This document shows, in pieces, positions 3,579 to 57,899 of a stretch of 64,000 nucleotides of DNA. Source of the DNA: Candidatus Saccharimonadales bacterium (GTDB taxonomy: Bacteria > Patescibacteriota > Saccharimonadia > Saccharimonadales > DASZAF01); contig DASZAF010000028.1 in assembly GCA_035945435.1 (NCBI GenBank), positions 692 through 64,691 of the forward strand, given 5' to 3'. The translations under genes and the position numbers were made by a program. Position 1 is the stretch's first letter; every line of letters starts with the position of its first letter. The notes under the pieces are model-generated. The model worked only from the letters and a program-made list of their open reading frames with translations, was not told where the DNA came from and ran no database searches.

Positions 3579-3633
3579 GCTTTCCTCAATATATCACGAA
3601 ACCGGAGGAGCCATTAGGCCCCCCCGGCATATT

Positions 3634-3658
3634 AAAAAATCGTCTGACTAAGGACGAT
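3634..3658 (-). terminator. Rho-independent terminator candidate after the 66-aa gene
   Basis: Minus strand reads ATCGTC-cttagtca-GACGAT followed by TTTTT, starting directly after the stop codon at 3659-3661. Confidence 0.55.
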
Positions 3659-3859: not shown

Positions 3860-3977
3860 GGTCTTCCTCCTTATTAGTTGCCTACGTAATCATACCTTAC
3901 GCTGTCGGTAAACTGTTTGTCAATGATATTTCAAGAGAAAGACAGTGATTTTACTTCTTTCAGCCTGTTGTAAGGTG

Positions 3978-13698: not shown

Positions 13699-13857
13699 AG
13701 CAATAACTCCGCAGCATGTCTCTACGTACTTCCAATAATAATACATCTCGAGACTGAACGCTTGTGCTTAGAGTCACTACCCTCTTACTTCTCGAGGTCG
13801 TTCGCAAAACATAAGGGAGTTCTGTACAATAAAAAACTAGCTAAGGAACGAACTTGC

Positions 13858-38998: not shown

Positions 38999-41900
38999 GT
39001 GGAAGAGCGATCGCAATCGTCGAGCGCTCCCGCGGGAGCAAGCCCAGGCGTACAACCAGTTAGTACGCTTGATAATCAAGCTGCCCAAAATCCGGCAGTT
39101 GTTACTCAGACTGAACCGCAGCAGACCCCCGGTTTTGCTCCGACACCTGCTCCCGCAATTCAAGAGTCACCATCGCTATCTTTCTCGCAGAAGATGACCA
39201 GCTATTTTGGTGGTTTCCCCTACAAGATGGTCGGTCTTGGCTTGCTGGTCACAGCCATCTTGGTCGGAAGCGCATTGATCGCCGGCCATATCAGTACCGG
39301 ACGCAATACCAATAACCACATCAATAACTCGGTAGGTAGTTCAAACAGCGCAAAGGGCAGCTTCAACGCCATGGAACTCCCCCTCGGCCAACTGGCTAAT
39401 GGCAGTCAGCTTAATATCCAAAGCTCTCACAACTTAGTCATCAACGGTCAGCTTGATGTCAACAACTCCCTGGTTCTTTCCCCGAATGGCCAACCGACTA
39501 ACGCAGTAGCCGGCCAGCTCTACTTTGACCAGAAGACTGACGAGCTCAGCTACTTCAACGGCAGTCAGTTTGTAAACCTGCTTGGCAGTTCTCAATCAAA
39601 CTCAGCCCTCAACGGCTCGAGGGGCATTATCAACCTTGGCAACGGCCTGACTTCTTCGGGCGGCCAAATCTTTAACAGCGGCGTTCTCTCTTTGCAGGGT
39701 CAGGCGGGACAGATAAACCTAGGCAGCGGGTTAGCGATGAACGGCTCCACTTTGAGCGTCACCCAGTCCGGCAACGTATCGACTGGTGGTGCCGGCGGAG
39801 CAGCTGGCAGCCTAGCCGTATTCACGGGCGGTCAGACACTCGGTAACTCACTGATCAGTCAGACCGGTGCGACGGTTACCGTCAACGGCGGCTTGAACGT
39901 CACTGGAAATGTTAATCTGACAAACCCACTAGGTGTTGTACAAGGTGGCACCGGCGTTAGCAGTCTAGCTAGTGACGACCTCGTTGTCGGAGGCGGGACT
40001 GGGGCCCTCTCTACCATAGCCGCCAGCTCAGCGGGCCAATGTCTGCTCTCAACAAACGGAGCCCCACAATGGGTCAACTGTCCGGGTGGTACATTTAGCA
40101 GCCTCGACGGGCTGGCCGGTAACCTGACCCTAGCCGACTCAACCGGCAGCGGCAGCACAGTAACGATCGATACAGCCAGCAACACCCAGGAAGGTATAGC
40201 CTCATTCAACAATACCAACCTTATCGTCACGACCGGCCAAGTCGATACCGTCCAGGACATTAACCCCGGTTCAACCCCCACATTTGCCGGGCTGAATACG
40301 AACCAGATCTCACCCTCTAGCACAACCTTAACCGTCGGCGCAGCTGGCAAGACGACGACATTGCAGGGTGGCTTGACGACTATGTCCCAGACCAACAGCG
40401 GCTTTACGACATCACTTGGTTTCCAGACACCAACGGCAAACGTCACCTATCTACTCCAGACAACTGCCGCTGGGACGTATAACGTTTGTACGACTGCGGG
40501 CAACTGTACTGGTATTGGTGGTGGAGTAACAACTGCGGGCGGAACGATTAATACCATCCCGAAGTTCACGGCTGCTCAAGGTATCGGCAACTCGGAACTA
40601 AGCGACAGCGGTACAGTCGTGACAGATACTGGCGGGCTGACTGTCCAAGGAACCGTAACGCTAACCAACGCCTTGAGTGTCGGCAACGGCGGGACTGGCG
40701 CAAACAGTGCCAATGTCGCTCGTAGTAACTTGGGTGCAGCTGCAAGCGGCTCCAACTCTGACATCACCTCACTTTCTGGACTCACTACCGCACTAAGTGT
40801 CCTCCAGGGTGGAACTGGAACAACCTCATTGACAGCCAATGGAGTGCTCCTGGGTAACGGCACTGGAGCAATATCCTCGCTCGTCGCTGGGTCTAGTAAC
40901 GACTGCCTCGTCTCCACTTCAGGTGCGCCGGTCTGGACAACCTGTCCAGATACCGGCGTCAGTCTCCTCGACGGCTTGGCAGGCTCTCTGACAATCGCCA
41001 ACTCAACTGGCAGCGGCAGCACAGTTACCATTCAGAATGCTTCAACCAGTCAACTTGGTCTGGCTGAGTTCAATTCGACCAACTTTACGGTTAGTTCTGG
41101 CATCGCCAATACTGTTCAAAACATTAACACGGCTGCCACACCGACTTTCGCAACTCTGAACTTAACTTCCAGCCAGGTTTCAAACGCCATGTTGCTGGTT
41201 AACAACACGAATACCGGCACGACTGGAAACCTGCTAGATCTTCAGTTGAATGGAAGTAGCAAACTACATGTCGACGCAAGTGGTAATATCACCCTCAACG
41301 GGACGGTTAACGGTCAGACCATTTCAAGTGCGGCCAGCTTAACAGGAAGCTTGGCGGTGGCTGGTGCAGCAAACCTAAACGGCGGCGCGACGGTGACCGG
41401 CACACTTACGGCCAACACCATCACGCCGACCGCGCCGATGACCATCGGATCAAGTAGCCAAACGCTGACCATCCAAGGCAACGGGTCAACGGAGCTCACG
41501 GCGACAAACGGCAGCTCGACAACCACTCTCGGTTTCCAGACACCAACGGCAAACGTCACCTATCTACTCCAGACAGCGGCTGCAGGTACTTACAATATCT
41601 GTACCACGGTTGGCAACTGTTCAGGTGTTGGCGGCGGGGTGACGACATCGGGCGGAACGACCGGCGATTTAGCCGTCTTCACCGGTTCGCAGGTAATCGG
41701 CAACTCACTCATAAGCGAGTCAGGTGGAACAGTTACTGTTAACGGTAATATCAACCTCACAACTGGCAACCAGTTCCAGATAAATGGCTCACAGATTGCT
41801 AGTTCAAATCTTTCTGACTCGTCAAATCTGGCTAAGCTAAACGCCACTCAGACCTTCACGGGAGGGAGCAATGTCTTCGCGAACAACAGCAACTCCTCGA

Positions 41901-44900
41901 GCGAATTCGTGATTCAGAACGCTTCAAACTTCAACCTGCTAAACGTTAACAGCAGTACGGGAGTTATTACGGTTGGCAACGTCACCGCGACTTCTGGCCA
42001 AGGTGTTGCTGGGGCCATTGCCTTCGCAGACGGCACCAACGATAACTTTGGTCTAACTGTTGAGTCCACCACTTTAACGGCAAATCAAACTATCAGTTTC
42101 CCCAACCTAACTGGAACGGTCTGTTTGGAAAACTCAACAGCTTGTGGCTTTGCAACGAGTAGCGGTTCTGGCAATTATGTCAACAACACGACGAGTACCC
42201 AAGCGGCTAACTTTGACGTCCAGGCGGCACTTAGCGGAACCGTGGCTGGAACCCTCGAGGCTAACGCTTCGGGGACTGGCGATATTCTGGATCTGGAAAA
42301 CGGCAGTGGGGCAAAAGTAGCAACGTTTGGAAGTTCGGGTAGCGCATTCTTCCAAGCATCATCAGACGCCACGAACGCCTTCAATATCGAATATGCTGGC
42401 GGGTCGAGCGACTCCAATAACGTCTTCAACGTCGATACCATTGATAACTACACCAACAGCGCTGGTGCGCTCAACATTGTAGGTGGTGAGACAGTTAACA
42501 GCCTAACCTCCACATATGTCAACGAGCCTATGGTCGTTGCGCCAAAAGGTAAGCTACTTAACCAAGCGACATACAGTAGCGGGGGCCAGTATGTTCAACT
42601 TAACCCAGCCACCAACAATACGTGGGGTGCTTTGCAATACGACTCGACCAATCCAGGTTCTTACTTTACGGCGACTTGGCAGATGTTTACCGGCGGTGGG
42701 ACCGGCGCAGACTCGCAGTACTTCTACTGGGGGGGCACGACGACACCGATCAACGAGACGAGTGCAACCGGCGGCTACATGGTCAGCTGGGATGAACACA
42801 CGAATACGATCAGCCTGCTTTATAATGGCACCTCGCTTGATAGTGCCAGCCAGACGGGTATGAACAACTCAACATGGACGAACGTCCAAGTCACCGAAGC
42901 TGGCGACGTTATTACAGTCTACTGGAACGGCACTCAGGAGTTCTCATACACTGATTCTAATAGAGGGCTTGGTGGCTCGATTATGGGTTGGGGTGCACGA
43001 AGTGGAGCTCTCAACAACAACCACCGCGTTCGTAACCTTCTCGTAACCGATAATATCCCCACACCCTCGATCACCCAGCACGGTGCAACAGGCTCAACTA
43101 CCTATGCGTACGAGATTACCGTTCAAACCAGTATGGGAGGTCAGAGCGCACCCTCAACGGCGACGCAGGTAACCAGCGGCCCAGGCACACTGACAGGCAC
43201 TAACTACAACACCGTCTCCTGGCCGGCAGTACCTGGCGCTACTAGCTACAACGTCTATCGTACGGTCGGCGGGACTACCACTGGCCTCATCGGCAATACG
43301 ACGAGTCTGTCACTTAACGATACTGGTTTAACTGGGACAAATAGCGTTCCAACGACCGATACATCCGGATCACTGACTCTTAATGGCGGGCCTTTGGTAG
43401 TTGAGAACACATCCGGTCTTACCGACCTAGCCGTCAATAACGGTACGGGCGCCCTGTCTCTTGGTAACGTCACCAGCGCCACGGGCGACGGGGTGGCTGG
43501 CAGTGTCATCTTCGCTGACGGCACCGCTGATGGATTTGGAATGACCGTAGATACGGCGACCTTAACGGCCAATCAGACGATTGCGTTCCCGAATGCAAGT
43601 GGCACGGTTTGTTTGGATAACTCAGTTTCGTGTGGATTCGCTGCAAGCAGTGGATCGGGCAGCTATATTCAGAACGGGACAGGTACTCAAAGTGCTAACT
43701 TCAATGTCCAAGCGGCCACAAGTGGCAGTATAGCCGGGGTCCTTGAAGCAAACTCCTCAGGCACCGGCGACATTCTGGATCTTGAGAACGGAAGCGGAGC
43801 AAAAGTGGCAACGTTTGGAAGCAGCGGTGCTACAACGTTTGAGAACAGCACTAACTCTGCCAATGCACTACTAGTTGAGAATGCCTCAGGATATAACCTG
43901 CTGAACGTCAACTCGAGTACTGGTGCCCTGACCCTAGGCAATATCACTTCCACATCCGGGCATGGGGTCCAAGGTGCGGTCGCGTTTGCCGATGGTACCA
44001 ACGATAACTTTGGCATGACGATCGAAAGCCTGACTCTGACTAACAACCAGACCATCTCATTCCCCAACTTAAGCGGCACCGTCTGCCTAGAAGGATCGGC
44101 CGCTTGTGGCTTTGCTACCAGCAGTGGATCGGGCAGCTACGTAAACAACACCACTGCTACGCAAGCCGCCAACTTCAACGTCCAAGCTGCGACGAGCGGT
44201 AGTGTGGCCGGCGTACTTGAAGCCAATAACACTGGGACGGGAGACATCCTCGATTTGGAGAACGGAAGCGGTGCTAAAGTTGGGACAATTGCCTACGCAG
44301 GCGCAACGCTCTTCCAGAACTCTACCAACTCGGCTAATGCATTTGAGATTGAAAACGCAGCCGGATACAACTTGTTGAATATTAATAGCACCACCGGACT
44401 ACTAAGTCTCGGCAACATTACGAGTACCTCGGGCCAAGGTGTTGCGGGTCAAATTTCCCTAGCTGACGGCACCAACGATAACTTTGGTCTAACTGTTGAG
44501 TCCACCACTTTAACGGCAAATCAAACTATCAGTTTCCCCAATCTGACAGGGACTGTCTGTCTGGAGAGTTCGTCGGCCTGCGGATTCGCTCCGTCAACAG
44601 GTTCAGGGAATTATATTCAGAATGGCACATCCACCCAAAGTGCCAACTTCAACGTCCAAGCTGCGACGAGCGGGAGTGTGGCGGGCGTGCTGGAGGCAAA
44701 CAGCTCGGGTACCGGAGATATCTTAGATCTTGAAAACGGCAGTGGGGCGAAGGTGGCAACGTTTGGTTATAACGGGATTGTCACCCTCCAGAACTCGACC
44801 AACTCCACAAACGCTCTGCAGGTTGAGACTTCTGGTGGTTCACCGACGACGGTCTTTAACGTTGATACAACGAATGACAGAGTTGGCATCGGCACAAACT

Positions 44901-47900
44901 CGCCATCAGCGGTAGTAAGTATTAATAATGCAGGCTCTGCTTCGCAAGCAGACCTCAATATTAAAGCCGCTTCTGGACAGACTGGTGATTTGATCGATGT
45001 GCTTGACTCGAACGGCAACGTGCTCGCTCATACCGATAGTAATGGCAACTACACTGGGATAGGTACCATCACGACTCTCGGAGTTCTTCACTGGCCAACA
45101 GGCACCTCGGCAACTGCGACGAGTGGGAGCGGTCTAGCCAGTAGCACCAAATACTACTATGAGATCACTGCCACAAACGTTGACGGAGAAACAGAGGGAT
45201 CTCCATCGTTTAACGCCACGACTGGAGCTGGCGTCAACGACCAGATCACACTGACTTGGAACGCTGACAACGGGGCGACCGGCTATAAGATTTACATGAA
45301 TACGAGCAATAGCTTTACTTCTGGTTCACTGCTGCTGACTACAATTTCAGGAGGCAGCACTACGAGCTATATAGACTCAACGACTACGACAAGCGCCGGG
45401 ACACCTCCGACATCTCCACCTGCAGTCAATGGGCTATGCGTAGAGAACTATTCAGGCAGTTGTTCATTCTACGTCAATCAGTATGGCAACTCAGATTCTG
45501 CTGCGGGCATGACAGTCAGTGGGCAGACCGGAAGTAACAATCAGGCATCGAACCTTCTCGTAGAAGAGAGCGGTAACATTGCCGGAGAAGTTGTTGAGGG
45601 CAGCAGCACCGTTGCTGCTATACAGATACAAGATGCTGGCAACGGAGACACTCTCAGCCAATTTGGTTCTAACGGCGCTTATACGACCTACGGCACCAAC
45701 ACCGGTCTTCTCGCCCTTGCCACACCCGCATTTACTACAGCTCCGACTGGTACCAGCTTTTACTATGTCATCACGGCTACAAACTCAACCGGTGAGACTG
45801 TCCAGAGTGCATCCCTCGGCATGTCTAACAACACAAGCGCCCTCGCGTGGTCAGTTGTCCCAGGGGCTACCGGCTACAAGATCTACCGCAACTCATCAAA
45901 CAACTTTACATCAGGAGCGCGCCTACTAAAGACAATTACCAGCGGTCAAACTACAAGCTATACCGATACCGGATCCGCTACGACTACTGGTCTCCCACCC
46001 ACAGCTCCGAATGGGACAACCCTGACCCTGCAGAGCTGGGGCGGACAGGTAAACCCTCTTCAGACATTTGAAAATAGTGCCGGTACAACAGTCGGTACAA
46101 TTAGCGCAACCGGCACCGCACTCTTCGAAAACTCGACTAACTCAGCTAACGCTTTCGAGATTGAAAATTCATCAGGTTACAACATCCTAAACGTCAACAC
46201 AAGCACCGGGGCTCTGACGGTCGGTAACATCACTTCTGCTTCGGGTCAAGGCGTCCAGGGCAGTATCATCCTCGCTGACGGGACTAACGACAACTTCGGT
46301 TTGACCCTTGATTCCAACACCCTAACTGCCAACCAAACCATTGCCTTCCCCAACTCATCAGGAACCGTCTGTCTAATCGGTGGAACAGCCTGTGGTTTCA
46401 TTCTCAACCAGACGTCTCAGCAAGCCAGCAGTAACTTCAATATATCTGGCACAGGCATCGCAGGGGTTTTGGAAGCCAACACAAATGGTCAATCCCTCTA
46501 CGTCGGAGACACCACTAACACATCGGTTAATATGAGCTTCAACGGTCGGGCTTTCTATGGGTATGACGGCCAACACGCTGTTGTCCAATCAGGTCCAGGA
46601 CACGGTATTAACTTCGATGTAGGTAGCGGCACTTTTGGTAACGGCACAGTGGCCTCCATCAGCTCCACAGGTGCTGCGAACTTTGAGAATAACACCAACT
46701 CAGCAACAGCGTTCGTGGTAGAAAACTCGTCCGGCTATAACAACCTGGCCGTCAATACATCTACTGGAGCCCTAACCCTTGGGAACATTACTAGCACATC
46801 TGGTCAGGGGGTCCAAGGCTCGGCTATCCTCGCAGACGGCACTAACGACAACTTTGGCTTAACCTTACAGTCCACCACTTTAACGACCAACCAAACGATA
46901 ACATTCCCCAACCTGACAGGCACCGTCTGTCTAGACAACTCGACTGCCTGTGGGTTCGCGACCAGCAGCGGATCGGGCAGTTACATCCAAAACGGAACGA
47001 GCACGCAGAGCGCCAACTTCAACGTACAGGCTGCGACAAGCGGTAGCGTGGCTGGCGTTCTTGAGGCAAATTCGGGTGGCACCGGGGATATTTTAGATCT
47101 GGAGAACGGAAGTGGAATCAAAGTGGCAACAGTTGGAAGCAGCGGTGCAACAAACTTCGAGAATAGTACAAACTCGACAAACGCTTTCGCAGTAGAGAAT
47201 GCGTCAGGTGACAGCCTTCTAAACAGCGACACCACAGGCACCGGCAACCTTATCACTAACCCTGGCTTCGAAGGTGGAACGACTGGTTGGTCGGCTAAAG
47301 GAAGCGCCACCATTAGCCAGGTCAATACGCAGGCACTATTTGGGGCAGACTCTTTGAAGATCTCGACTACTGCCGCTGCTAACGATGGGGCCGAATACTC
47401 GGTTAACTTGGCCAGCTCAACGACGTATACCCTCTCCATGTACATCAAATCCGGTTCAGGCAACCCAACCACTCTCGAGCTGGGACGTTCAGAGAACGGC
47501 TCGACCAATACCACTTGTGCGACTAGCCAGGACGCGTTCTCCGGTCAATGGTACCAAGACAACTGTACCTTCACCACCGGAACGACGTCAGGTTCAACCT
47601 ATATCTATATTGATCAGTCAGACGCTACTTCCCGCACCCTTTATATAGATAATGTTGACTTGGTGCAATCGGCGTCAGTCCCCGTATATGAAGAAGGTCA
47701 TACTACCTTCGACAGCAATATCGATGTCAATGGCAGCTACAGCCAAGCCAGTACCACCAATGCCGCAGCGCTTATTACTGCAGAGTCGGGTGGTAACGGC
47801 TTGGTCGTTCTTGGCGCACCCAATGCCAACGTCACCCGTAACGCTTTTGACGTTGAGAATAACACCGATACTACTTCATACTTCCATGTAAGCGATACAT

Positions 47901-50900
47901 TCGGTGATACAGTCGTTAATGGCGGAAGTACGTTCTACGGCACGCCAGCATTCAATGTTAATACTCTCGCCGCTGGTGCGGTCGCCGAGCAAATCAGTGG
48001 CGCATCAGGCCAGACTGGCAACTTGGTTAACTACACTGATAGCCACAATGTCGCTCTCAGTAGCATTACCTCTTCTGGCGGATTTACCAGTTACGGGGCT
48101 AACAACTCCTTACTTGCTCTGACCACACCAGCGCTTAATACTCCCGGTCTGGCTGCAGGTGGTTCACTGACTACCGGCACCACATACTACTATGTTATGA
48201 CGGCCACAAATGCAGCCGGCGAGACAGTCGCCTCTTCCAGCGTCAACGACACGCCGACTACCGGCAACGACACCATCACTCTATCCTGGACTCAGATTCC
48301 TGGGGCAACTGGCTACAAGGTCTACCGAAATACAAGTAATAGCTTTACTTCAGGGTCGCTCCTTCTAACAACCATCACTAACGGAGCCACTGTCAGCTAC
48401 TCTGACACTGGGACAGCTACAACGAGTGGTCTACCGCCAACCACACCAGCTGGTACATCATTGACCCTGCAGAGTTGGGGTGGCCAGACCGCCAATTCGC
48501 TGGCAATTGAGAACTCGAGCGGTTCCACCATCGCGGCCATAACGGCAGGGGGTAATATAGACACCGCTTCTGCCTTCGATATCATGAGCAGCGCGACACT
48601 CAATATCGGAACTGCAAATGCTACCGCAATTAATATAGGCAATAGTTCTGCCAATAACTCGACGACAATCAACGGGATTGGTGTCGTCAAGACAAACGGC
48701 AGTGACTCAACGACCGCCTTCATGGTCGAGAACCACTTAGGTGTTGCCGATCTCTTCGTTGATACCGTCAACGATCGGACGACCGTCGGCTCGGGTAGCT
48801 CATCAGGGTCAACGTTCACTGTTAACGGAACATCTGCACTTGGTGACGGAAGCTCGACTCAAGAGTTCTACGTTGCTAACGCAAGCAGCAACCCAGTTCT
48901 CAATGTTGATACGACCAACGGGATAGTCCAAATCGGCAACGCCAGCGCTACGGCCGGCCAAGACGTAACGGGAATCTTAGAACTCGCCGACGGCACCACA
49001 GATAACTTCGGCCTCAAGGTCGAGACCAACACTCTGACGGGTAACCAGACTGTTAAATTCCCCAATGCTTCAGGTACGGTCTGTCTGAATACTCAGAACT
49101 GTAACTTTACTGGTACAGGCTACATCGTTAACAACACCACAACCCAATCCGGTAACTTTAACGTGCAGGCTGCGACGAGTGGTAGTGTGACTGCTGTTCT
49201 GGAAGCAAACAGCGGTGGGACAGGAGACATCTTAGACCTCAAGAACGGGAGCGGAGTACAGGTAGGTATGTTCGGGAGCAGCGGTCAAGCCGAGTTTGAG
49301 AACAGTACTAACTCTCTGACCGCCTTTGAGGTTGAAAACTCTGGAGGAACTTCAATACTGACCGGGGATACGACAAACAACAGAGTAGCCTTCGGTGCTT
49401 CCGAAACAGCCATGAGTACACCTACTGGTCTGTCCGTCGGGACCGCTACTTCAGGGGGCAGTCTAGCTGCAACGACAACCTACTACTATAAGGTCACTGC
49501 CATAGATAGTGCAGGCGGAGAGACAGCCGCTTCAACCGAAGCCTCAGGTGCAACAACTTCATCTAATCTCACTCTGCCCGTTACCTGGACGGCTGTAACT
49601 GGCGCAAGCGGTTACCGAGTCTACCGAGCTACGACAAGCGGCAGCGAAGTGTACCTGACCACAACACTCACCACTGGCTACACCGACAACGGCAATCTTG
49701 TTGCCGGGACGGCAGTAGCCCCAGCTTCCAACACCGCTTACACCTCAGCCGCCCTCACAAGTAACGACCTCCAGGTGCTTGTAGGCGGGATGGGTACCCC
49801 GACTGGCCAGGAGTATGTCGGCGGCAACCTGCCGACCGGAGCCATCGGCAACTATAGCCTGGGCAGTGGCGCATCACCGGAAGGAATCTTTGTCCAAGGC
49901 AACTATGCATACGTCATCAATAACGGCAGTAGCCTCATGGACGTCATTGATATCTCCAATCCGGCCAGCCCTTCACTTATCAGCCAGCCTTCGATTGGCA
50001 ACAACCCGCGTTACGTGTACGTTAGCGGCCAGTATGCTTATGTCTGCAACTACACCTCCAACACCGTACAGATCTTCGATGTCGCTAATCCATCGAACGT
50101 GTCCTCGGTCAGCACCATCGCGACAGGTACAGGTACCCACCCGGTTGATGTCTACGTCCAAGGTAAATACGCCTACGTCGTTCTCAATACCACAGCCCAA
50201 TTAGAAGTCTATGACGTCTCCAACCCCGCCGCGCCAGTAGCCCTCGGTCAAGTATCTCTCGCAAGCTCGCCACGTTATATCTACGTGAATGGCAACTTTG
50301 CCTATATAGCTGGTAATGGTGGCAACCAGATACAGGTAGTAAACGTTGCAACGCCAACAAGCCCGGTTGTCGTTAACTCGACCTCAACCGGTTCGAATAG
50401 CAACCCGTACCAAGTCACTGTCCAAGGCCGATATCTTTACGTAACGACGACGAATACCAACCATAGCAACTTGATGACCTTCGATATCTCTAATCCGACG
50501 TCGCCAGTCCTCGATAGCACCTTCGCCGTAGGCGCGGGCACTACTCCTCAGGCTGTTCAGGTTCAAGGTCGGTACGCGTACATCATTAACAACGGCACCA
50601 ATACCATGCAGATCGTGGACATCTCTAACCCTGATAACCCCATCAGCGATGGAACCGTCTCTACAGGAAGCGGCTCAGGACCATTCGATATGAAAGTCGT
50701 TGGTCGGTACGCATACGTTACAAACAACTCGACCAACAATCTGCTCGTTTACGACCTCGGCGGTTCATATATCCAGCAGCTACAGGCGGGTGGCGCAGAA
50801 TTCGGCACACTTCAAGTCGATGCCAACGCAACGGTCGCCGGTGACCAGAACGTTCAAGGCGGGCTATCAGTAGGGCAACACCTTGAAGTCAACGGCAACG

Positions 50901-52255
50901 TCGGAATCGCTGGTAGCACTCTCATCCAGGGCGCTCTTAATGTAGCCGGTGGTATCCAAGGCGGGGCAACTATCAACGGTTTGAGTACACCAGGTGCGCC
51001 GACGATTACCCAGCAAGGCACGGGCGCTTCTACAAGCTATAGCTACGCTGTAGCGGCGGTCTCAGCATCTGGCGGTATAACGCCAGCATCGTCCGTTACT
51101 ACGACGAGCGGGGGCGCAGCCACACTCAATGGCACAAACTACAACGTCGTCAGCTGGTCGCCAATCATAGGCGCGGTGAGTTACGACGTCTATCGTACAG
51201 CAAGCTCTGGCAGCCCGAGCACAACAGGCCTGATCGGTAACACTTCCAACACTTATTTGAACGACACAGGGCTGGCCGGTGGCGGGGGCAGTGCTCCAAC
51301 AACCGACAGTTCTGGAGAACTAAACGCCAACGGATTTGCCACGTTTAAGAACACGACGAATTCAACCACCTCGTTCCAGGTACAGAACCAGAGCGGGGTT
51401 AACTTGCTTACGGCAGATACGACCGACTCATATATCACCATCGGCAGCTCGTCCGCAAACACAAACAATATCTTGCTTGTTTTGAACAACAACAGCAACA
51501 CCTCTGATCCGACCGGCACGAACGGTGCTATGTACTACAACTCAGGCCTTGGTCAGTTCAGATGTCAGGAGCAGGGCAAGTGGTACAACTGTGTCGGCGA
51601 GAGTCCTGATCTTCAGCGCCAGATGCCAATTTATTCTTCCGACATGATTGGTCTTAACAGCTCCCAGACGGCGCCGTTCAACCCTTCCGGCCAAGGGAGT
51701 GGATCGGCCGCTATGGATACAGGGGACGAGACTGGTAGTCACATCGGCGTCATAGACTTCCACGGTGGTGGATCGGCTGGCGGTGGTTATAACTTGATGA
51801 CCGACTGGGGCGCCTTTGTGCTGGGCGGTGGCAACGGCTTCGAGACAACGATCATACCTCATAGCTTCTCAGGTGTTGAAGAACGCTTCGGCTACTTCGA
51901 TAACAATGCTAACACCGCCATTAGCAACGGCGCTTGGGTGGACGTCAACTCCAGCGGCGTAGCCACCGGCATGACCAGTAAAGCCGGCACCCAGAGCTCA
52001 ACCGGCACCACATACACTATGAGCACGGGGACATGGTATCGAGTCAAGGTCCAAGTCAATAGCAACGCTACTCAGGTCGATTTCTACATATACAACGACA
52101 GCGGGACCCAGCTCTGGCATGATTCGCTGACGACCAATATCCCAACCGGCACAACAGGCTGTGGTGACGCTGCCGAAACCAGTACAACTTCATCTCTCCA
52201 TATTATGGGAGACGACTACGAAGCCTTCTGGGTAAATGAACCCCTGACGAGATAG
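38999..52255 (+). CDS. Giant (4,418 aa) N-terminally anchored modular surface protein
   Basis: Single uninterrupted frame of 13,257 nt. The track start is GTG 38999, with in-frame ATGs at 39194 and 39227. One TM helix at 39227-39290. The rest is Gly/Thr/Ser/Asn-rich with repeated modules and conserved Cys pairs. See repeats and findings. Confidence 0.85.
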   Translation: MEERSQSSSAPAGASPGVQPVSTLDNQAAQNPAVVTQTEPQQTPGFAPTPAPAIQESPSLSFSQKMTSYFGGFPYKMVGLGLLVTAILVGSALIAGHISTGRNTNNHINNSVGSSNSAKGSFNAMELPLGQLANGSQLNIQSSHNLVINGQLDVNNSLVLSPNGQPTNAVAGQLYFDQKTDELSYFNGSQFVNLLGSSQSNSALNGSRGIINLGNGLTSSGGQIFNSGVLSLQGQAGQINLGSGLAMNGSTLSVTQSGNVSTGGAGGAAGSLAVFTGGQTLGNSLISQTGATVTVNGGLNVTGNVNLTNPLGVVQGGTGVSSLASDDLVVGGGTGALSTIAASSAGQCLLSTNGAPQWVNCPGGTFSSLDGLAGNLTLADSTGSGSTVTIDTASNTQEGIASFNNTNLIVTTGQVDTVQDINPGSTPTFAGLNTNQISPSSTTLTVGAAGKTTTLQGGLTTMSQTNSGFTTSLGFQTPTANVTYLLQTTAAGTYNVCTTAGNCTGIGGGVTTAGGTINTIPKFTAAQGIGNSELSDSGTVVTDTGGLTVQGTVTLTNALSVGNGGTGANSANVARSNLGAAASGSNSDITSLSGLTTALSVLQGGTGTTSLTANGVLLGNGTGAISSLVAGSSNDCLVSTSGAPVWTTCPDTGVSLLDGLAGSLTIANSTGSGSTVTIQNASTSQLGLAEFNSTNFTVSSGIANTVQNINTAATPTFATLNLTSSQVSNAMLLVNNTNTGTTGNLLDLQLNGSSKLHVDASGNITLNGTVNGQTISSAASLTGSLAVAGAANLNGGATVTGTLTANTITPTAPMTIGSSSQTLTIQGNGSTELTATNGSSTTTLGFQTPTANVTYLLQTAAAGTYNICTTVGNCSGVGGGVTTSGGTTGDLAVFTGSQVIGNSLISESGGTVTVNGNINLTTGNQFQINGSQIASSNLSDSSNLAKLNATQTFTGGSNVFANNSNSSSEFVIQNASNFNLLNVNSSTGVITVGNVTATSGQGVAGAIAFADGTNDNFGLTVESTTLTANQTISFPNLTGTVCLENSTACGFATSSGSGNYVNNTTSTQAANFDVQAALSGTVAGTLEANASGTGDILDLENGSGAKVATFGSSGSAFFQASSDATNAFNIEYAGGSSDSNNVFNVDTIDNYTNSAGALNIVGGETVNSLTSTYVNEPMVVAPKGKLLNQATYSSGGQYVQLNPATNNTWGALQYDSTNPGSYFTATWQMFTGGGTGADSQYFYWGGTTTPINETSATGGYMVSWDEHTNTISLLYNGTSLDSASQTGMNNSTWTNVQVTEAGDVITVYWNGTQEFSYTDSNRGLGGSIMGWGARSGALNNNHRVRNLLVTDNIPTPSITQHGATGSTTYAYEITVQTSMGGQSAPSTATQVTSGPGTLTGTNYNTVSWPAVPGATSYNVYRTVGGTTTGLIGNTTSLSLNDTGLTGTNSVPTTDTSGSLTLNGGPLVVENTSGLTDLAVNNGTGALSLGNVTSATGDGVAGSVIFADGTADGFGMTVDTATLTANQTIAFPNASGTVCLDNSVSCGFAASSGSGSYIQNGTGTQSANFNVQAATSGSIAGVLEANSSGTGDILDLENGSGAKVATFGSSGATTFENSTNSANALLVENASGYNLLNVNSSTGALTLGNITSTSGHGVQGAVAFADGTNDNFGMTIESLTLTNNQTISFPNLSGTVCLEGSAACGFATSSGSGSYVNNTTATQAANFNVQAATSGSVAGVLEANNTGTGDILDLENGSGAKVGTIAYAGATLFQNSTNSANAFEIENAAGYNLLNINSTTGLLSLGNITSTSGQGVAGQISLADGTNDNFGLTVESTTLTANQTISFPNLTGTVCLESSSACGFAPSTGSGNYIQNGTSTQSANFNVQAATSGSVAGVLEANSSGTGDILDLENGSGAKVATFGYNGIVTLQNSTNSTNALQVETSGGSPTTVFNVDTTNDRVGIGTNSPSAVVSINNAGSASQADLNIKAASGQTGDLIDVLDSNGNVLAHTDSNGNYTGIGTITTLGVLHWPTGTSATATSGSGLASSTKYYYEITATNVDGETEGSPSFNATTGAGVNDQITLTWNADNGATGYKIYMNTSNSFTSGSLLLTTISGGSTTSYIDSTTTTSAGTPPTSPPAVNGLCVENYSGSCSFYVNQYGNSDSAAGMTVSGQTGSNNQASNLLVEESGNIAGEVVEGSSTVAAIQIQDAGNGDTLSQFGSNGAYTTYGTNTGLLALATPAFTTAPTGTSFYYVITATNSTGETVQSASLGMSNNTSALAWSVVPGATGYKIYRNSSNNFTSGARLLKTITSGQTTSYTDTGSATTTGLPPTAPNGTTLTLQSWGGQVNPLQTFENSAGTTVGTISATGTALFENSTNSANAFEIENSSGYNILNVNTSTGALTVGNITSASGQGVQGSIILADGTNDNFGLTLDSNTLTANQTIAFPNSSGTVCLIGGTACGFILNQTSQQASSNFNISGTGIAGVLEANTNGQSLYVGDTTNTSVNMSFNGRAFYGYDGQHAVVQSGPGHGINFDVGSGTFGNGTVASISSTGAANFENNTNSATAFVVENSSGYNNLAVNTSTGALTLGNITSTSGQGVQGSAILADGTNDNFGLTLQSTTLTTNQTITFPNLTGTVCLDNSTACGFATSSGSGSYIQNGTSTQSANFNVQAATSGSVAGVLEANSGGTGDILDLENGSGIKVATVGSSGATNFENSTNSTNAFAVENASGDSLLNSDTTGTGNLITNPGFEGGTTGWSAKGSATISQVNTQALFGADSLKISTTAAANDGAEYSVNLASSTTYTLSMYIKSGSGNPTTLELGRSENGSTNTTCATSQDAFSGQWYQDNCTFTTGTTSGSTYIYIDQSDATSRTLYIDNVDLVQSASVPVYEEGHTTFDSNIDVNGSYSQASTTNAAALITAESGGNGLVVLGAPNANVTRNAFDVENNTDTTSYFHVSDTFGDTVVNGGSTFYGTPAFNVNTLAAGAVAEQISGASGQTGNLVNYTDSHNVALSSITSSGGFTSYGANNSLLALTTPALNTPGLAAGGSLTTGTTYYYVMTATNAAGETVASSSVNDTPTTGNDTITLSWTQIPGATGYKVYRNTSNSFTSGSLLLTTITNGATVSYSDTGTATTSGLPPTTPAGTSLTLQSWGGQTANSLAIENSSGSTIAAITAGGNIDTASAFDIMSSATLNIGTANATAINIGNSSANNSTTINGIGVVKTNGSDSTTAFMVENHLGVADLFVDTVNDRTTVGSGSSSGSTFTVNGTSALGDGSSTQEFYVANASSNPVLNVDTTNGIVQIGNASATAGQDVTGILELADGTTDNFGLKVETNTLTGNQTVKFPNASGTVCLNTQNCNFTGTGYIVNNTTTQSGNFNVQAATSGSVTAVLEANSGGTGDILDLKNGSGVQVGMFGSSGQAEFENSTNSLTAFEVENSGGTSILTGDTTNNRVAFGASETAMSTPTGLSVGTATSGGSLAATTTYYYKVTAIDSAGGETAASTEASGATTSSNLTLPVTWTAVTGASGYRVYRATTSGSEVYLTTTLTTGYTDNGNLVAGTAVAPASNTAYTSAALTSNDLQVLVGGMGTPTGQEYVGGNLPTGAIGNYSLGSGASPEGIFVQGNYAYVINNGSSLMDVIDISNPASPSLISQPSIGNNPRYVYVSGQYAYVCNYTSNTVQIFDVANPSNVSSVSTIATGTGTHPVDVYVQGKYAYVVLNTTAQLEVYDVSNPAAPVALGQVSLASSPRYIYVNGNFAYIAGNGGNQIQVVNVATPTSPVVVNSTSTGSNSNPYQVTVQGRYLYVTTTNTNHSNLMTFDISNPTSPVLDSTFAVGAGTTPQAVQVQGRYAYIINNGTNTMQIVDISNPDNPISDGTVSTGSGSGPFDMKVVGRYAYVTNNSTNNLLVYDLGGSYIQQLQAGGAEFGTLQVDANATVAGDQNVQGGLSVGQHLEVNGNVGIAGSTLIQGALNVAGGIQGGATINGLSTPGAPTITQQGTGASTSYSYAVAAVSASGGITPASSVTTTSGGAATLNGTNYNVVSWSPIIGAVSYDVYRTASSGSPSTTGLIGNTSNTYLNDTGLAGGGGSAPTTDSSGELNANGFATFKNTTNSTTSFQVQNQSGVNLLTADTTDSYITIGSSSANTNNILLVLNNNSNTSDPTGTNGAMYYNSGLGQFRCQEQGKWYNCVGESPDLQRQMPIYSSDMIGLNSSQTAPFNPSGQGSGSAAMDTGDETGSHIGVIDFHGGGSAGGGYNLMTDWGAFVLGGGNGFETTIIPHSFSGVEERFGYFDNNANTAISNGAWVDVNSSGVATGMTSKAGTQSSTGTTYTMSTGTWYRVKVQVNSNATQVDFYIYNDSGTQLWHDSLTTNIPTGTTGCGDAAETSTTSSLHIMGDDYEAFWVNEPLTR
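40418..40462 (+). repeat. 45-nt exact intragenic repeat, copy 1 (copy 2 at 41531-41575)
   Basis: ggtttccagacaccaacggcaaacgtcacctatctactccagaca occurs identically at both positions, 1,113 nt (371 codons) apart. It encodes GFQTPTANVTYLLQT. Confidence 0.9.
41531..41575 (+). repeat. 45-nt exact intragenic repeat, copy 2
   Basis: Identical to 40418-40462. The flanking protein sequence is also duplicated (..AAGTYN(V/I)CTT(A/V)GNC(T/S)G(I/V)GGGVTT..). Confidence 0.9.
42029..42105 (+). repeat. 77-nt exact intragenic repeat, copy 1 (copy 2 at 44465-44541)
   Basis: gacggcaccaacgataactttggtctaactgttgagtccaccactttaacggcaaatcaaactatcagtttccccaa is identical at both sites. The offset is 2,436 nt = 812 codons, which is in frame. 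Confidence 0.9.
43390..44800 (+). repeat. Tandem array of ~3 copies of a 474-nt (158-aa) coding unit
   Basis: The conserved junction codon TG(T/C) of ..CGFA.. recurs at 43631, 44105 and 44579, exactly 474 nt apart. Unit: ..SGSG.Y(I/V)(Q/N)N.T.TQ(S/A)ANFNVQAATSGS(I/V)AGVLEAN..GTGDILDLENGSGAKV...NSTNSANA...GYNLLN(V/I)NS(S/T)TG.L(T/S)LGNITSTSG.GV.G....ADGTNDNFG(M/L)T(I/V)ES.TLT.NQTISFPNL(S/T)GTVCLE.S.ACGFA. More diverged copies lie at ~41870-42300, 46125-47160 and 48830-49330. Confidence 0.85.
44465..44541 (+). repeat. 77-nt exact intragenic repeat, copy 2
   Basis: Identical to 42029-42105. It encodes DGTNDNFGLTVESTTLTANQTISFPN. Confidence 0.9.
49868..50765 (+). repeat. Seven LVIVD-like repeats (putative beta-propeller) inside the giant ORF
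   Basis: Seven units of about 43 aa match (V/Y)xV(Q/S/N)G(N/Q/K/R)(Y/F)AY(V/I)....(N/T)..(L/M).(V/I).D(I/V)SNP..P. Examples: GNYAYVINNGSSLMDVIDISNPASP, GKYAYVVLNTTAQLEVYDVSNPAAP, GRYAYIINNGTNTMQIVDISNPDNP. Confidence 0.75.
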
Positions 52256-52286: not shown

Positions 52287-52877
52287 TTAGTTGCGCGTTT
52301 GGCCGCCTAGGATCAGAGTCTCCATCATGGTGGTCATTTGATCCGTAGGGATGGGAGCGTTCGTGTTGGCGAGTACCCATACCTGGCTATTTACATAGTT
52401 AGCTATTTCAGCATCACTCTGCGCATTCCGACCAATGGCGACCGTGCCGCCGTTAACACCGTACTCTTTCAGACCTGTCAGTGAGTTAAAGAAGTCACCG
52501 ATGTTATATTTTCCAGGCTTCGGTTCCTCGCTGAAGTAGATCTTTTGGCTACCCGGCCCATCGAGGTTGAATATGACTACGTCAGCCCTGGGTTTGCTTA
52601 CTGAGGTGGGATCCATCCGGAAACCAGTCGGCAAGTTAGTCGGATAGTATAACGGAAACTGGACCGAGGCTAAGACCTGAGCCGTAAACGGGTTAGCATT
52701 AGCTGAGGTCCGATCGAGAAAAGTAAGCCATAGGCTAACACCAATCACGCCAACGACGAATAGACAGATAAATCCTGTCAGGATACGGAGTGCGAGACTC
52801 CTCGAAAGCTGGACCCTAAAGAGTGACCAGCGACGACTGAGCGATTTCCATATACCTCCCACATCCATGTGTTTCAA
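52287..52877 (-). CDS. Hypothetical N-terminally anchored protein
   Basis: 196 aa. TM helix ILTGFICLFVVGVIGVSLWLTF, then an external domain of about 140 aa. Convergent with the giant gene, with 31 nt between the stop codons. Confidence 0.6.
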   Translation of the reverse strand: MKHMDVGGIWKSLSRRWSLFRVQLSRSLALRILTGFICLFVVGVIGVSLWLTFLDRTSANANPFTAQVLASVQFPLYYPTNLPTGFRMDPTSVSKPRADVVIFNLDGPGSQKIYFSEEPKPGKYNIGDFFNSLTGLKEYGVNGGTVAIGRNAQSDAEIANYVNSQVWVLANTNAPIPTDQMTTMMETLILGGQTRN

Positions 52878-52923: not shown

Positions 52924-53490
52924 TTAAACTTTAGAGGCAGGGGCTGCCGGCTTTGGCGCAGAGGCGCTAGCTGAACCTTTCGTCATAAAGTCACTTCGTA
53001 CCTGGAAGATGAAGTACGCAGCCACGACTGAACCTACAACGGCTGCCACTAGATCACCGAACCCACCTCCAACATTTGAGAAGACGCGGATGATGCCATA
53101 TACGACATTCAGCAGCAAGCTGTAGTAAACAAGGTTCCAGCCTGCTTTCTTAAGGGCCTTGAGGGGTGCGACGGCCAGAAGGAGTATGACTCCATCAATG
53201 ACAACGGCCGCCAGAGATATGTAGAAGAAGACGCCTAGTGAAACCGTTGTTGTTGCCCCATACGCATTGGCTAAGTTGTTGACAACCGTGACGACCGTAT
53301 TAACGTCCTGACCTAAGCGCCAGAGAGACCACGCAGCAATGAGCTGGATTAATCCCAGAATCAAGGCGAGCCACCATAGGGCACCGGCGAGTGATTTGCG
53401 CGCATCTTCAGACATTTTATATGGCGCCTTTGTATCAAGCGGCACGGCGAGTTGTTTTTCTAACTTTTGTAGAGGTCCCATCAAGCACAC
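52924..53490 (-). CDS. Hypothetical polytopic membrane protein (4 TM)
   Basis: 188 aa (alternative start MGPLQK at 53481). Four hydrophobic helices and an Ala/Pro/Ser-rich tail. No family name recalled. Confidence 0.6.
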   Translation of the reverse strand: MCLMGPLQKLEKQLAVPLDTKAPYKMSEDARKSLAGALWWLALILGLIQLIAAWSLWRLGQDVNTVVTVVNNLANAYGATTTVSLGVFFYISLAAVVIDGVILLLAVAPLKALKKAGWNLVYYSLLLNVVYGIIRVFSNVGGGFGDLVAAVVGSVVAAYFIFQVRSDFMTKGSASASAPKPAAPASKV

Positions 53491-53554: not shown

Positions 53555-55174
53555 CTATCTTAAGATAAGACCTTCGTGTGGCTTGAGTGTCAGATGGTCA
53601 TTGACGACTTCGGGTAGCGGACTGTTTATGTCTGTAGATAAGATCGCCCGTTGCCCACTCACCTCACGGCCAATAGTCACCGGCCTGGCACTAAAGTTGA
53701 GCAATATTGTGAGCTTCTCGTTATCCGATCTACGAGTATAGCTAAAGACGTCCGGATGAAGATCAAGGCCATGATATGATCCTGTCAGAAGAGCCGTTGA
53801 GCCTTTCCGAAAACGAATCAATCTTTTGTGGAGATTCAGTATCGACGATGGGTCCTTATCCTGGGCTTCCACGTTATAGGTTTTATAACCTGAGGCAACT
53901 GGCAGCCATGGCTTGCCAGTCGTAAACCCCGCATTCTCACCGTCAGTCCAAGGCATTGGGGTCCGCTCCGGGTCCCGACCCAAACCGATACCCGGCTCAT
54001 TGCGTTCAAACTGGTCTTTGGCCGTTCGTGGTCCTATACGGCCATCGGCTAGACCAAGCTCATCGCCATTGTAAATGACAGCGATCCCTGGCAGCGTCAG
54101 GATCATCATGGCTGCCGTTCGTGCTTGTTCGTGGCCGTAACGAGTGGCTATCCGTTCATGGTCGTGGTTACTAAAACAGTAGACTGGTACGCTTGTCCCG
54201 CGAAGAGAGGATTGAAAGTGACCGACGAAATCACTGAAGTAGGTGGCATCCCACGGCGCGTTAATGGGCCCGAAGTTGAATGGGGCAGCGACTGCATGAT
54301 CGATCTTGTCGTAAAAACCCTTGAAGTACTGATTGATGTCGGGCTTATTGGGGCTGTTTTCGGCAACCGTGAAACGGCCCGAATATTCAGCGACGACTGA
54401 AGTTAAATCGTTGAGCCGCTCGTATACTTTCTCTCCATCTCTGCTGTGGACGTGAGATAAGGTATGATACGGATTTCTATCTTTATGCTTATCCAACCGC
54501 TTGTTTGGTGGATCATCTCGAAGAAGAGGGTCTTTAGCTAGATAGTCAGTAGAGTCGAAACGGAAGCCGTCCACTCCAATGTCGAGCCAGAAACGCAGTG
54601 CCTTCTTCATCTCATTGCGGACTTCTGCGTTCTCCCAGTTGAGATCGGGTTGGCTGGTCAAGAAGCTGTGTAAGTAGTACTGGTTCGTCTTCTTATCCAA
54701 CTGCCAGGCTGATCCGCCAAAAACACTGAGCCAGTTGTTGGGCGGAGAGCCATCAGCTTTCGGATAGCGCCAGACATACCAGTCACGATACCTTGCCGTA
54801 CGCGAGCTGCGAGAGTCCTGAAACCACGGATGCTGATCAGAGGTGTGGTTAGGAATATAGTCGATGAAAATCTTGAGACCACGCTTGCGACACCCAGCCA
54901 CCAATACTTTAATGTCGTCGAGCGTACCACGCGAAGAATCGACAGAATAGTAGTCGGTGATGTCGTAACCGGAGTCGACCATTGGCGATGGGTAGAAAGG
55001 AGTGATCCATATCGCATCAACACCAAGAGAATCCTCACCACCCGCTAGGTAGTCGAGTTTTTCTATGATACCAGGGAGGTCGCCCACGCCATCGCCATTC
55101 GAGTCGTAGAAGCTATTCAGGTAGATCTCATAGAGGACAGCGTGTCTGAACCAAGGCTCTGTAATGCCCACCAT
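53555..55174 (-). CDS. GH13 alpha-amylase-family enzyme, alpha-glucosidase/oligo-1,6-glucosidase/trehalose-6-P-hydrolase-like
   Basis: WFRHAVLYEIYLNSFYDSNGDGVGDLPGI..LDYL..LGVDAIWITPFY. Region I FIDYIPNHTS, region II GVDGFRFDS, region III VAE, region IV FSNHDHER. No signal peptide. Confidence 0.9.
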   Translation of the reverse strand: MVGITEPWFRHAVLYEIYLNSFYDSNGDGVGDLPGIIEKLDYLAGGEDSLGVDAIWITPFYPSPMVDSGYDITDYYSVDSSRGTLDDIKVLVAGCRKRGLKIFIDYIPNHTSDQHPWFQDSRSSRTARYRDWYVWRYPKADGSPPNNWLSVFGGSAWQLDKKTNQYYLHSFLTSQPDLNWENAEVRNEMKKALRFWLDIGVDGFRFDSTDYLAKDPLLRDDPPNKRLDKHKDRNPYHTLSHVHSRDGEKVYERLNDLTSVVAEYSGRFTVAENSPNKPDINQYFKGFYDKIDHAVAAPFNFGPINAPWDATYFSDFVGHFQSSLRGTSVPVYCFSNHDHERIATRYGHEQARTAAMMILTLPGIAVIYNGDELGLADGRIGPRTAKDQFERNEPGIGLGRDPERTPMPWTDGENAGFTTGKPWLPVASGYKTYNVEAQDKDPSSILNLHKRLIRFRKGSTALLTGSYHGLDLHPDVFSYTRRSDNEKLTILLNFSARPVTIGREVSGQRAILSTDINSPLPEVVNDHLTLKPHEGLILR

Positions 55175-55209
55175 ACTCTGCTATTGTAACTTACGTCTAA
55201 GGCCTAGCG

Positions 55210-56391: not shown

Positions 56392-56480
56392 TTCAAAGAC
56401 TGGGTGCAATCACACACACAATACTGTAATTATAGTCTTAGAATATCCGCTTCACAATGATATTAATCACAACGAGCATT

Positions 56481-57845: not shown

Positions 57846-57899
57846 ATTGTAATACCTTATACTCCCAATGCGTATGTTCTTAGATAACATTGTGGTGTA

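Follow-up and report, generated by a model that had tools for sequence, protein, structure and literature searches.

What could be the role of a single uninterrupted gene of more than 13 kb in the genome of an uncultured member of the Saccharimonadales, a group whose cultivated members live as epibionts (PMC10633639)? The question is raised by a stretch of 64,000 nucleotides (nt) of contig DASZAF010000028.1 (positions 692 to 64,691; assembly GCA_035945435.1), hereafter the window, in which an atpA-G-D-C cluster is followed, 128 nt after the end of atpC at position 38870, by a stop-free frame of 13,257 nt (4,418 codons, with a GTG start and zero internal stops); its extent and its distance from atpC are exactly as stated in a preliminary description of this DNA. 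The product corresponds to NCBI HEV2412974.1, a "hypothetical protein" from the 65-kb contig of a Candidatus Saccharimonadales metagenome-assembled genome (MAG), the sole difference being M/V at the GTG start. We consider it probable that this gene encodes a giant cell-surface fibre, namely a membrane-anchored, tail-fibre-like adhesin employed for attachment to a host or to a polysaccharide. Judging from sequence comparison, the giant protein does not stand alone as a mosaic but is part of a large unnamed family characterized by a conserved neck and by tips that can be exchanged. The open reading frame (ORF) and the backbone of its product, in amino acids (aa), can be laid out as follows:

38999..52255, forward strand: the whole ORF, 4,418 aa, 442 kDa, isoelectric point (pI) 4.05; matches HEV2412974.1
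38999..39226, forward strand: P/Q/S/A-rich tail, aa 1-76, read from the sequence and presumably cytoplasmic; alternative start ATG 39194
39227..39286, forward strand: single hydrophobic helix MVGLGLLVTAILVGSALIAG, aa 77-96, from a hydropathy scan; same layout in the relatives L003 and L005
39287..41710, forward strand: cell-proximal fibre region, aa 97-904, delineated by self-comparison; homologues in 14-16 family members
41711..42487, forward strand: stalk block A, aa 905-1163, degenerate Y, X and Y sub-modules in that order
43316..44902, forward strand: stalk block B, aa 1440-1968, X and Y sub-modules (three of each); best tandem units aa 1546-1703 and 1704-1861
46010..47242, forward strand: stalk block C, aa 2338-2748, 158-aa unit
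48551..49411, forward strand: stalk block D, aa 3185-3471, 158-aa unit
51260..51613, forward strand: last Y half-unit and conserved neck (…LLVLNNNSNTSDPTGTNGAMYYNSGLGQFRCQEQGKWYNC…), aa 4088-4205, from alignment A4
51614..52252, forward strand: C-terminal tip, a concanavalin A (ConA)-like jelly roll, aa 4206-4418, from Pfam SO2946-like_C, AlphaFold2 (AF2) and Foldseek

How, then, can a protein of this size be understood? Its last domain is recognized by the Pfam model SO2946-like_C (PF22237) at aa 4247-4403, with a score of 92.7 bits (threshold 27) and an alignment that spans model positions 1-160 of 163. For the last 359 residues, an AF2 model based on 27 homologues has a predicted local distance difference test (pLDDT) score above 90 over the terminal ~210 residues, and a Foldseek comparison with the PDB retrieves, as the best match, SO2946 itself (2a5z; E 8e-12, TM 0.72), followed by legume lectins, glucanases of glycoside hydrolase family 16 (GH16), the carbohydrate-binding module CBM2 of the phage J-1 Dit protein, and the receptor-binding domains of botulinum toxins. 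Among the predicted viral structures in BFVD, the top-ranking entry comes from an uncultured Caudovirales phage and is named an SO2946-like C-terminal domain-containing protein (E 2.7e-21, TM 0.79), with further matches to Mtd-N-domain proteins and minor tail proteins. The structure prediction and Foldseek search that the preliminary description recommended have thus produced a confident ConA-like fold for the tip, along with a low-confidence model for the stalk. GH16-type hydrolase activity of the tip was set aside, the E-x-D-x-x-E motif being absent by eye.

The connection with phages is apparent at the sequence level as well, the tip being 33-38 % identical to the phage-encoded proteins P0019 and P0018 as far as the terminal L-T/V-R. 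On a phage contig obtained from groundwater (0.1-µm fraction), the P0019 gene is located between those for tube and tape measure; the P0018 gene lies behind that of a 1,297-aa tail protein and ahead of a CHAP lysin, and the gene of another homologue, P0021, lies within a prophage-like element. Seen as a group, these three homologues either have tube, tape-measure, GpJ and lysin genes of phages next to them or are part of a prophage-like element. Yet another tip homologue, P0030, is chromosomal, in a genome resembling those from the candidate phyla radiation (CPR), and a narrow-alignment search finds the tip on two IMG/VR viral contigs. In two phage contigs from the 0.1-µm fraction of Hainich groundwater (L083, 1-21317, and L084, 1-16909), the tail region, from tube to tape measure, encodes an SO2946-like_C protein, a 529-aa protein and a Laminin_G_3 protein; these are possibly phages of ultrasmall bacteria that have tip domains in common with the cellular fibres. 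The initial comparison with tail fibres had been prompted by GGTG motifs, which are indeed present (at aa 316, 332, 564 and 604), but no tool linked them to phages: a tblastn search with the GGTG/N-terminal modules against 50,697 GenBank phage records returned nothing. The tail-fibre-like impression is nevertheless right, resting on the tip and the neck and not on the GGTG motifs.

The neck (aa 4140-4205, 213 aa from the C-terminal end, with the motif GAMYYN-x5-FRC-x3-G-x-W-x2-C) matches no Pfam model and is present in 80 fetched proteins; in 76 of 81 proteins, the giant one included, it is found 100-400 aa from the C-terminus. What comes after the neck varies. The tips fall into 21 sequence clusters, which include SO2946-like, Phage Tail Collar, C1q and many unannotated domains, and 26 of the 75 clustered tips are of one unannotated type, that of P0004, P0007 and P0041. 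One collar-tipped member has infB, def, fmt and priA as its genomic neighbours and hence is cellular.

The stalk consists of a 158-aa unit in which a Y sub-module of ~95 aa (signature ...YIQNGTSTQSANFNVQAATSGSVAGVLEANSSGTGDILDLENGSGAKV...) and an X sub-module of ~60 aa (signature ...FADGTNDNFGLTVESTTLTANQTISFPN..GTVCL...S.AC) are joined at a C-x6-C pair. Where at least seven copies of a ~140-160-aa unit had been discerned by eye, we count seven full units and five extra Y halves, mostly in the four stalk blocks. The unit has no match in any Pfam, NCBIfam or PHROG model searched, and its profile finds nothing credible among PDB sequences (the best hit is a 'FliK' chain, E 0.015). An exhaustive search with the same profile against 1.84 billion cluster representatives yields 733 of them at E<=1e-3 and 66 at E<=1e-30, many with lengths of 1,000-5,700 aa and with up to 26 matched stretches. 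Wherever a member comes with an organism name, it is from the Saccharibacteria or Saccharimonadales; the annotations given to these members are "hypothetical", "beta strand repeat-containing", "Kelch repeat-containing" or "phage tail protein" and, in IMG, "fibronectin-binding autotransporter adhesin" (P0042, P0048). A hydrophobic segment is present at the N-terminus of 91 of 146 family proteins, and the modules described below are shuffled among the members: the propeller occurs in 9 and the carbohydrate-binding module (CBM) in 13, P0149 has at least five LVIVD propellers, and several members (P0149, P0085 and P0097 among the mosaic examples) contain multiple CBM_4_9 domains. The giant protein combines the family traits, with its seven full and five half units, the helix at aa 77-96 and the neck close to the end. 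The protein in its entirety is not covered by any Pfam, NCBIfam or PHROG model, which agrees with the original suspicion that its combination of modules is not a described family, and ~15 % of its length reaches a Pfam threshold. Many shorter neck-bearing proteins (P0012, P0027, P0030, P0031, P0033, P0034 and P0025 in alignment A4) open with a signal peptide along with a conserved N-terminal domain, 'AAQTVPYK.NFQGRLTD..GN...G.YN..F..Y....GG...W.E', that is absent from the giant protein, indicating a second, smaller class of fibres with the same neck and tips.

At the other end of the protein, the ~75 Pro/Gln-rich residues and the single hydrophobic helix of the preliminary description are found as a 76-aa tail and a helix at aa 77-96. 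Public gene calls disagree on the start (GTG 38999 versus ATG 39194), and neither codon is preceded by a clear Shine-Dalgarno sequence; the upstream start, GTG 38999, is favoured because the part of the tail ahead of M66 can be aligned with the orthologue in L003. From its sequence, we infer that the helix is a signal anchor. The more than 4,300 Gly/Thr/Ser/Asn-rich residues reported to follow it are reflected in the composition of the product (T 14.7, G 13.3, S 12.2 and N 10.0 %, that is, half T/G/S/N, with K+R at 1.5 %), which also contains 164 N-x-S/T sequons and 30 cysteines, in 14 short-range pairs and 2 singles. Of the cysteine spacings listed at first reading, C-x5-C and, at the repeat junctions, C-x6-C stand, whereas the supposed C-x13-C is really C-x12-C (spacing 13). 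Such an architecture, a hydrophobic helix and then more than 4,300 acidic, Cys-paired, beta-rich residues with carbohydrate-binding modules, fits an extracytoplasmic fibre. The cell-proximal region (aa 97-904), which Pfam scans leave without a match, comprises a conserved proximal part (aa 100-330) and duplicated ~290-aa modules with GGTG motifs and C-x12-C / C-x5-C pairs. The C-terminus, ...DYEAFWVNEPLTR, has neither an LPXTG motif nor a hydrophobic end, and Pfam scans of the giant protein detect no autotransporter or YadA anchor domain.

Between the stalk blocks, globular modules are inserted, among them six that resemble fibronectin type III (FN3) domains:

42491..43042, forward strand: orphan domain, aa 1165-1348; earlier LamG-like jelly-roll reading, unverified
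43043..43315, forward strand: FN3-like module 1 (apparently permuted), aa 1349-1439, from motif and strand order
45071..45373, forward strand: FN3-like module 2 (apparently permuted), aa 2025-2125; after re-permutation, Pfam fn3 at 26.2 bits (cut-off 25)
45701..45964, forward strand: FN3-like module 3 (apparently permuted), aa 2235-2322; PDB 3mpc, E 0.006
47243..47668, forward strand: CBM_4_9 carbohydrate-binding module, aa 2749-2890, from Pfam PF02018 and PDB CBM matches
48104..48403, forward strand: FN3-like module 4 (apparently permuted), aa 3036-3135, from motif and strand order
49400..49699, forward strand: FN3-like module 5 (apparently permuted), aa 3468-3567; Ig_Rha78A_N positions 60-98 N-terminal to GH85_C positions 14-52
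49796..50833, forward strand: LVIVD-type beta-propeller with seven repeats, aa ~3600-3945, from Pfam LVIVD and the Lactonase 7-blade model
50975..51259, forward strand: FN3-like module 6 (apparently permuted), aa 3993-4087, from motif and strand order

The CBM_4_9 match (PF02018) covers aa 2749-2872 and model positions 1-130 of 136 with 54.6 bits (E 2e-14; threshold 25.9), and the region also matches PDB sequences of CBM16 (2zew, E 7e-6) and CBM22 (1dyo). The seven-blade LVIVD-like propeller, likewise noticed at the outset, is substantiated by an LVIVD (PF08309) score of 121.6 bits (E 8e-36, in 6 stretches; gathering threshold 20.2), by a match to the Lactonase 7-blade model, and by seven G-x-Y-A-Y-V repeats spaced 43-47 aa. 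Of the three lectin/CBM-like jelly rolls proposed initially, two are the CBM_4_9 module and the SO2946-like_C tip, whereas the third, at aa 1165-1350, has no detectable relative: there is no Pfam match at E<=1, nothing credible among PDB sequences, no homologue among 5.8 billion proteins or in the family set, and a probability of 0.2 % in an hhalign comparison with a phage Laminin_G_3 protein. The Laminin_G_3/LamG reading of this orphan domain is, given these negative tests, unsupported.

The count of six FN3-like modules also proves correct, with the qualification that their strand order is non-canonical. The native modules give only half-model Pfam matches, in which the match to the C-terminal half lies N-terminal to that of the N-terminal half, and the F-G-type motif 'YYYxVTA..GET' precedes the B-C-type motif 'LxW..V.GA.GY.VYR'. 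After re-permutation in silico, in which the first half of each module was placed behind the second and the result rescored against Pfam fn3 (PF00041), three of the six give one collinear alignment over model positions 12-78 of 84, one of these at 26.2 bits. The order of the motifs suggests that these modules are circularly permuted; in a permuted FN3 domain, the two termini would lie at the same pole, and the domain would protrude from the side of the fibre.

Does the gene belong to the chromosome in which it is found? The closest matches of AtpD among 185,579 species genomes are from Saccharimonadales, Saccharibacteria, Saccharimonadia or unnamed MAGs, with 59-72 % identity; they agree with the NCBI name, and the assignment of the source organism to the Saccharimonadales (TM7, Patescibacteria) is thus supported by sequence. 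Synteny in related genomes was compared, as had been suggested: in L003 (AtpD 72 %) and L005 (62 %), a T/G/S/N-rich giant ORF directly follows atpC and runs off the contig end, whereas in L004 (70 %) the giant gene is not at this position. Both of these ORFs start with a tail rich in proline and a single hydrophobic helix that is preceded by K/R, and that of L003 is collinear with the window protein, at 42 % identity over 600 aa, from residue 15. The 31 window ORFs run through Pfam include no phage gene, and the module sequences of the giant protein have no further copy anywhere in the 64-kb window; by the look of these surroundings, the giant gene is native to the chromosome. Its GC content, overall and at third codon positions, is inside the range of the window. 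Nor did the ORFs scanned reveal a reverse transcriptase Pfam match or a homing target repeat of a diversity-generating retroelement, in a search that was not systematic. The contigs of the relatives (L003, 4170-8009; L005, 3592-6384) and the per-run assemblies (L001, L002) all stop inside the giant gene, which is why genes of this family are probably truncated or missing in MAGs systematically.

A scenario that accommodates these features would start with insertion through the Sec machinery, with the 76-aa tail remaining in the cytoplasm and the helix at aa 77-96 serving as a signal anchor, so that the ~4,300 acidic T/G/S/N-rich residues would be placed outside the cell. The stalk would be formed by the family-specific beta-strand repeat, the Y/X units in four blocks, between which the sequence places binding-type modules, that is, CBM_4_9, the six apparently permuted FN3-like domains, the LVIVD propeller and the orphan domain. 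The fibre ends with the neck and the ConA-like tip, which is homologous to the C-terminal domain of phage tail-module proteins and in place of which the sister proteins bear other domains, phage-tail-collar and C1q among them. The binding of surface glycans would then fall to the tip, the CBM and the propeller, which would tether the small cell to a bacterial host or to a polysaccharide; target recognition might proceed as in a phage tail fibre or a mosaic adhesive trimer (MAT) fibre of Bdellovibrio, and exchange of tips would retune specificity. Going by a rough estimate from the dimensions of Ig domains and tail fibres, such fibres might measure 150-250 nm. From its sequence features, the giant fibre appears to be a good candidate for the means by which a probable epibiont holds its host or substrate. 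A more far-reaching possibility, which we put forward only tentatively, is that the Saccharimonadales display membrane-anchored, possibly trimeric fibres of phage-tail-fibre design, with receptor-binding tips drawn from a domain pool common with co-occurring phages, a modular, exchangeable system of epibiotic host recognition that parallels the MAT fibres but is independent of them. On this view, the stalk would be continuous, and the permuted FN3-like modules, the CBM and the propeller would protrude from its side and offer additional sites for binding.

Several considerations weigh against the adhesin interpretation. Adhesion, surface exposure and anchoring are all inferred from sequence, and the epibiotic lifestyle of the source organism is assumed by analogy with cultivated relatives. 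For two stalk units, AF2 yields a model whose pLDDT averages 61 and which has no significant Foldseek match, the top non-significant ones being trimeric phage tail-fibre beta-helices (HylP, gp34) and Bdellovibrio Bd1334; with a model of such low confidence, neither a trimeric tail-fibre architecture nor a monomeric beads-on-a-string one is established. The helix may be the h-region of a long cleavable signal peptide, with a possible cleavage site 'LIAG|H', in which case the giant protein might be released or held otherwise. As members of CBM_4_9 typically bind glucans or xylans, this module would fit an environmental polysaccharide as well as a host wall. Finally, tblastn with the tip against the GenBank phage records returned nothing, so that the phage link rests on metagenomic contigs and on fold comparison.

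Which other explanations deserve consideration? The protein could tether the cell to an environmental polysaccharide (plant or microbial glucan, xylan or exopolysaccharide) as a non-catalytic, cellulosome-style scaffold that provides nutrient access or supports a biofilm, with no host involved. This alternative, which we regard as unlikely, draws on the fact that CBM_4_9 and ConA-like/GH16-like domains are classic polysaccharide binders and on the presence of genes for an alpha-amylase family enzyme, a family 4 glycosyltransferase (GT4) and an MGH1-like hydrolase downstream; these sugar genes, however, are convergent with the giant gene, on the opposite strand, Pfam scans detect no catalytic glycoside hydrolase domain anywhere in the giant protein, and the tip, apart from lacking (by eye) the GH16 motif, is common to phage tail proteins, which target cell surfaces. 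Quite unlikely, in our view, is a structural coat, that is, an S-layer-like component for protection, spacing or masking (for instance, against phages with the same tip) that would have no specific ligand. The low pI, the abundance of Thr, Ser and Asn and the numerous sequons are typical of heavily glycosylated envelope proteins, and the position beside a housekeeping operon is conserved, but several independent binding-type modules and a distal tip exchanged among paralogues and orthologues would be unexpected in a lattice protein, and the Pfam scans find no SLH or other S-layer domain.

Two further explanations concern the gene itself and not the function of its product. That it is a tail-fibre gene of a prophage or tailocin, or derived from a phage, and not a cellular gene, could be suspected from the phage-encoded homologues of the tip and from the NCBI name 'phage tail protein' on one family member. 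Yet no gene for a capsid, tube or tape-measure protein, a terminase or an integrase appears among the 31 ORFs of the window scanned with Pfam, an N-terminal membrane helix is no feature of tail fibres, the synteny with atpC is kept in genomes with AtpD 62-72 % identical, and the collar-tipped relative sits in a housekeeping neighbourhood. A prophage origin, rejected on gene context (the atp operon, the amylase and the GT4 neighbours) and conserved synteny, is thus highly improbable. Very little probability, too, can be given to an assembly artefact (chimeric or mis-joined repeats) or a pseudogene read through by chance, notwithstanding the breaks within the gene in the relatives' contigs and in two per-run assemblies, and the presence of a 77-nt exact repeat. 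The repeat copies are just 66-78 % identical in DNA, far below the level at which collapse would be expected, and two independent per-run assemblies reproduce the sequence of the window at 100 % identity, through atpC and into the gene for 0.7 and 1.45 kb, which together make an artefact unlikely (no long read spans the gene). A stop-free frame of such length would arise by chance with a probability of ~1e-85 under the base composition of the window, and the modules, the orphan domain excepted, have homologues in the same order-independent family.

Among the known systems, the giant adhesin fibre is best read as being closest in logic, by analogy, to the Bdellovibrio MAT fibres, in which tail-fibre-like surface fibres with swapped tips mediate prey recognition (PMC10769870). 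In both cases, the fibre is borne by a cell that lives on other bacteria (assumed here from relatives), a conserved stalk is combined with exchangeable C-terminal tips that include TNF/C1q-like and lectin folds (for the MATs, by description), and each lineage has a whole repertoire of fibres. A variable tip on a conserved stalk, the MAT design, is what the neck and the 21 tip clusters amount to. Whereas the MAT proteins are ~500-1,300 aa long with an invariant soluble N-terminal domain and, in many cases, an S74 chaperone-protease, the giant protein has 4,418 aa, a hydrophobic N-terminal helix, no S74 match in Pfam scans, and CBM, propeller and FN3-like modules in the stalk; trimerisation, shown for MATs, is only a possibility for the giant fibre. 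Its N-terminus, reading as a low-complexity tail and a helix, speaks against membership in the MATs by way of their N-terminal domain. The SO2946-like_C phage proteins are homologous over the last ~210 aa (33-38 % identity), with the same ConA-like fold; they are 250-570 aa long and encoded in tail modules, whereas the giant protein, chromosomally encoded and equipped with a membrane helix, exceeds them tenfold in length. SO2946 (2a5z) itself is without a determined function, the PDB title being 'protein of unknown function'.

Within the same phylum, the glycan-binding surface proteins SEML1_0890, SEML1_0891 and SEML1_0315 of Southlakia epibionticum are essential for epibiotic growth (PMC10633639). 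Like the giant protein, they are extracytoplasmic, with FN3, lectin-like or CBM-type modules and a proposed host-glycan target; compared by description, the domain sets are VCBS and dockerin there, and CBM_4_9, LVIVD and SO2946-like_C here, and a tail-fibre-like neck and tip are not described for the Southlakia proteins (PMC10633639). Giant repetitive adhesins such as staphylococcal Ebh/Embp, the serine-rich repeat proteins and the RTX adhesins (MpIBP/LapA) share with the giant protein the long repetitive extension, distal ligand-binding domains, acidity, and cysteines that are few or paired, but the giant protein has no LPXTG, accessory Sec (aSec)-type signal, serine-rich repeat, RTX nonapeptides or type I secretion signal, and no BIg, FIVAR or GA repeats, and its anchoring would be N-terminal. 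A sortase-anchored adhesin was ruled out by the C-terminus, which lacks LPXTG and a hydrophobic stretch, and an autotransporter adhesin, the IMG name for P0042 and P0048, by the same end being a ConA-like tip, with no autotransporter or YadA anchor domain in the Pfam scans. The giant proteins of Omnitrophota (>10,000 aa; bioRxiv 10.1101/2023.11.21.568195) are likewise mostly unannotated, predicted to be extracellular, encoded by ultrasmall bacteria and proposed to function in attachment and carbohydrate processing; they differ in being several times larger and in containing numerous transmembrane regions and SecA-DEAD, peptidase and dockerin domains, which are absent here.

What could be gained if the host-recognition interpretation holds? 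In ultrasmall Patescibacteria, only type IV pili and a few glycan-binding surface proteins have genetic support for a role in host recognition or attachment (PMC10633639, PMC12206443). The giant gene represents a large family, with 733 cluster representatives, in which a conserved stalk is combined with interchangeable distal domains that phages use too, and the main interest lies in the size of this unannotated family and in the repertoire of tips common to cells and phages. If these proteins are indeed host-recognition fibres, they would be concrete, testable candidates for determinants of host range; the small, confidently folding tip domains could be expressed for assays of binding to glycans or host envelopes; and domain traffic between cells and phages in the same communities would be indicated. 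At a minimum, the domain map, the repeat profile and the neck motif can be used to annotate hundreds of 'hypothetical' giant proteins.

Some other observations pertain to the gene and its neighbourhood. Within two X sub-modules that are elsewhere ~70 % identical, the 77-nt exact repeat is located at 42029-42105 and 44465-44541, both copies encoding DGTNDNFGLTVESTTLTANQTISFPNL; it may reflect gene conversion between copies of the repeat. Two ORFs that converge on the giant gene, of 196 and 188 aa (52287-52877 and 52924-53490, both on the reverse strand), have no Pfam match, and they are followed by the downstream sugar cluster (53555-57890, reverse strand), which consists of the alpha-amylase family enzyme with DUF3459, the GT4 glycosyltransferase and a weak match to an MGH1-like glycoside hydrolase. 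Elsewhere in the window, a MacB-type ABC transporter pair (FtsX-like permease and ATPase) lies beside a T/G/S/N-rich DUF5666 protein (22428-25124, reverse strand), and several other T/G/S/N-rich ORFs without a Pfam match (12538-13746, reverse strand; 13762-14583, forward strand) may encode additional surface proteins.

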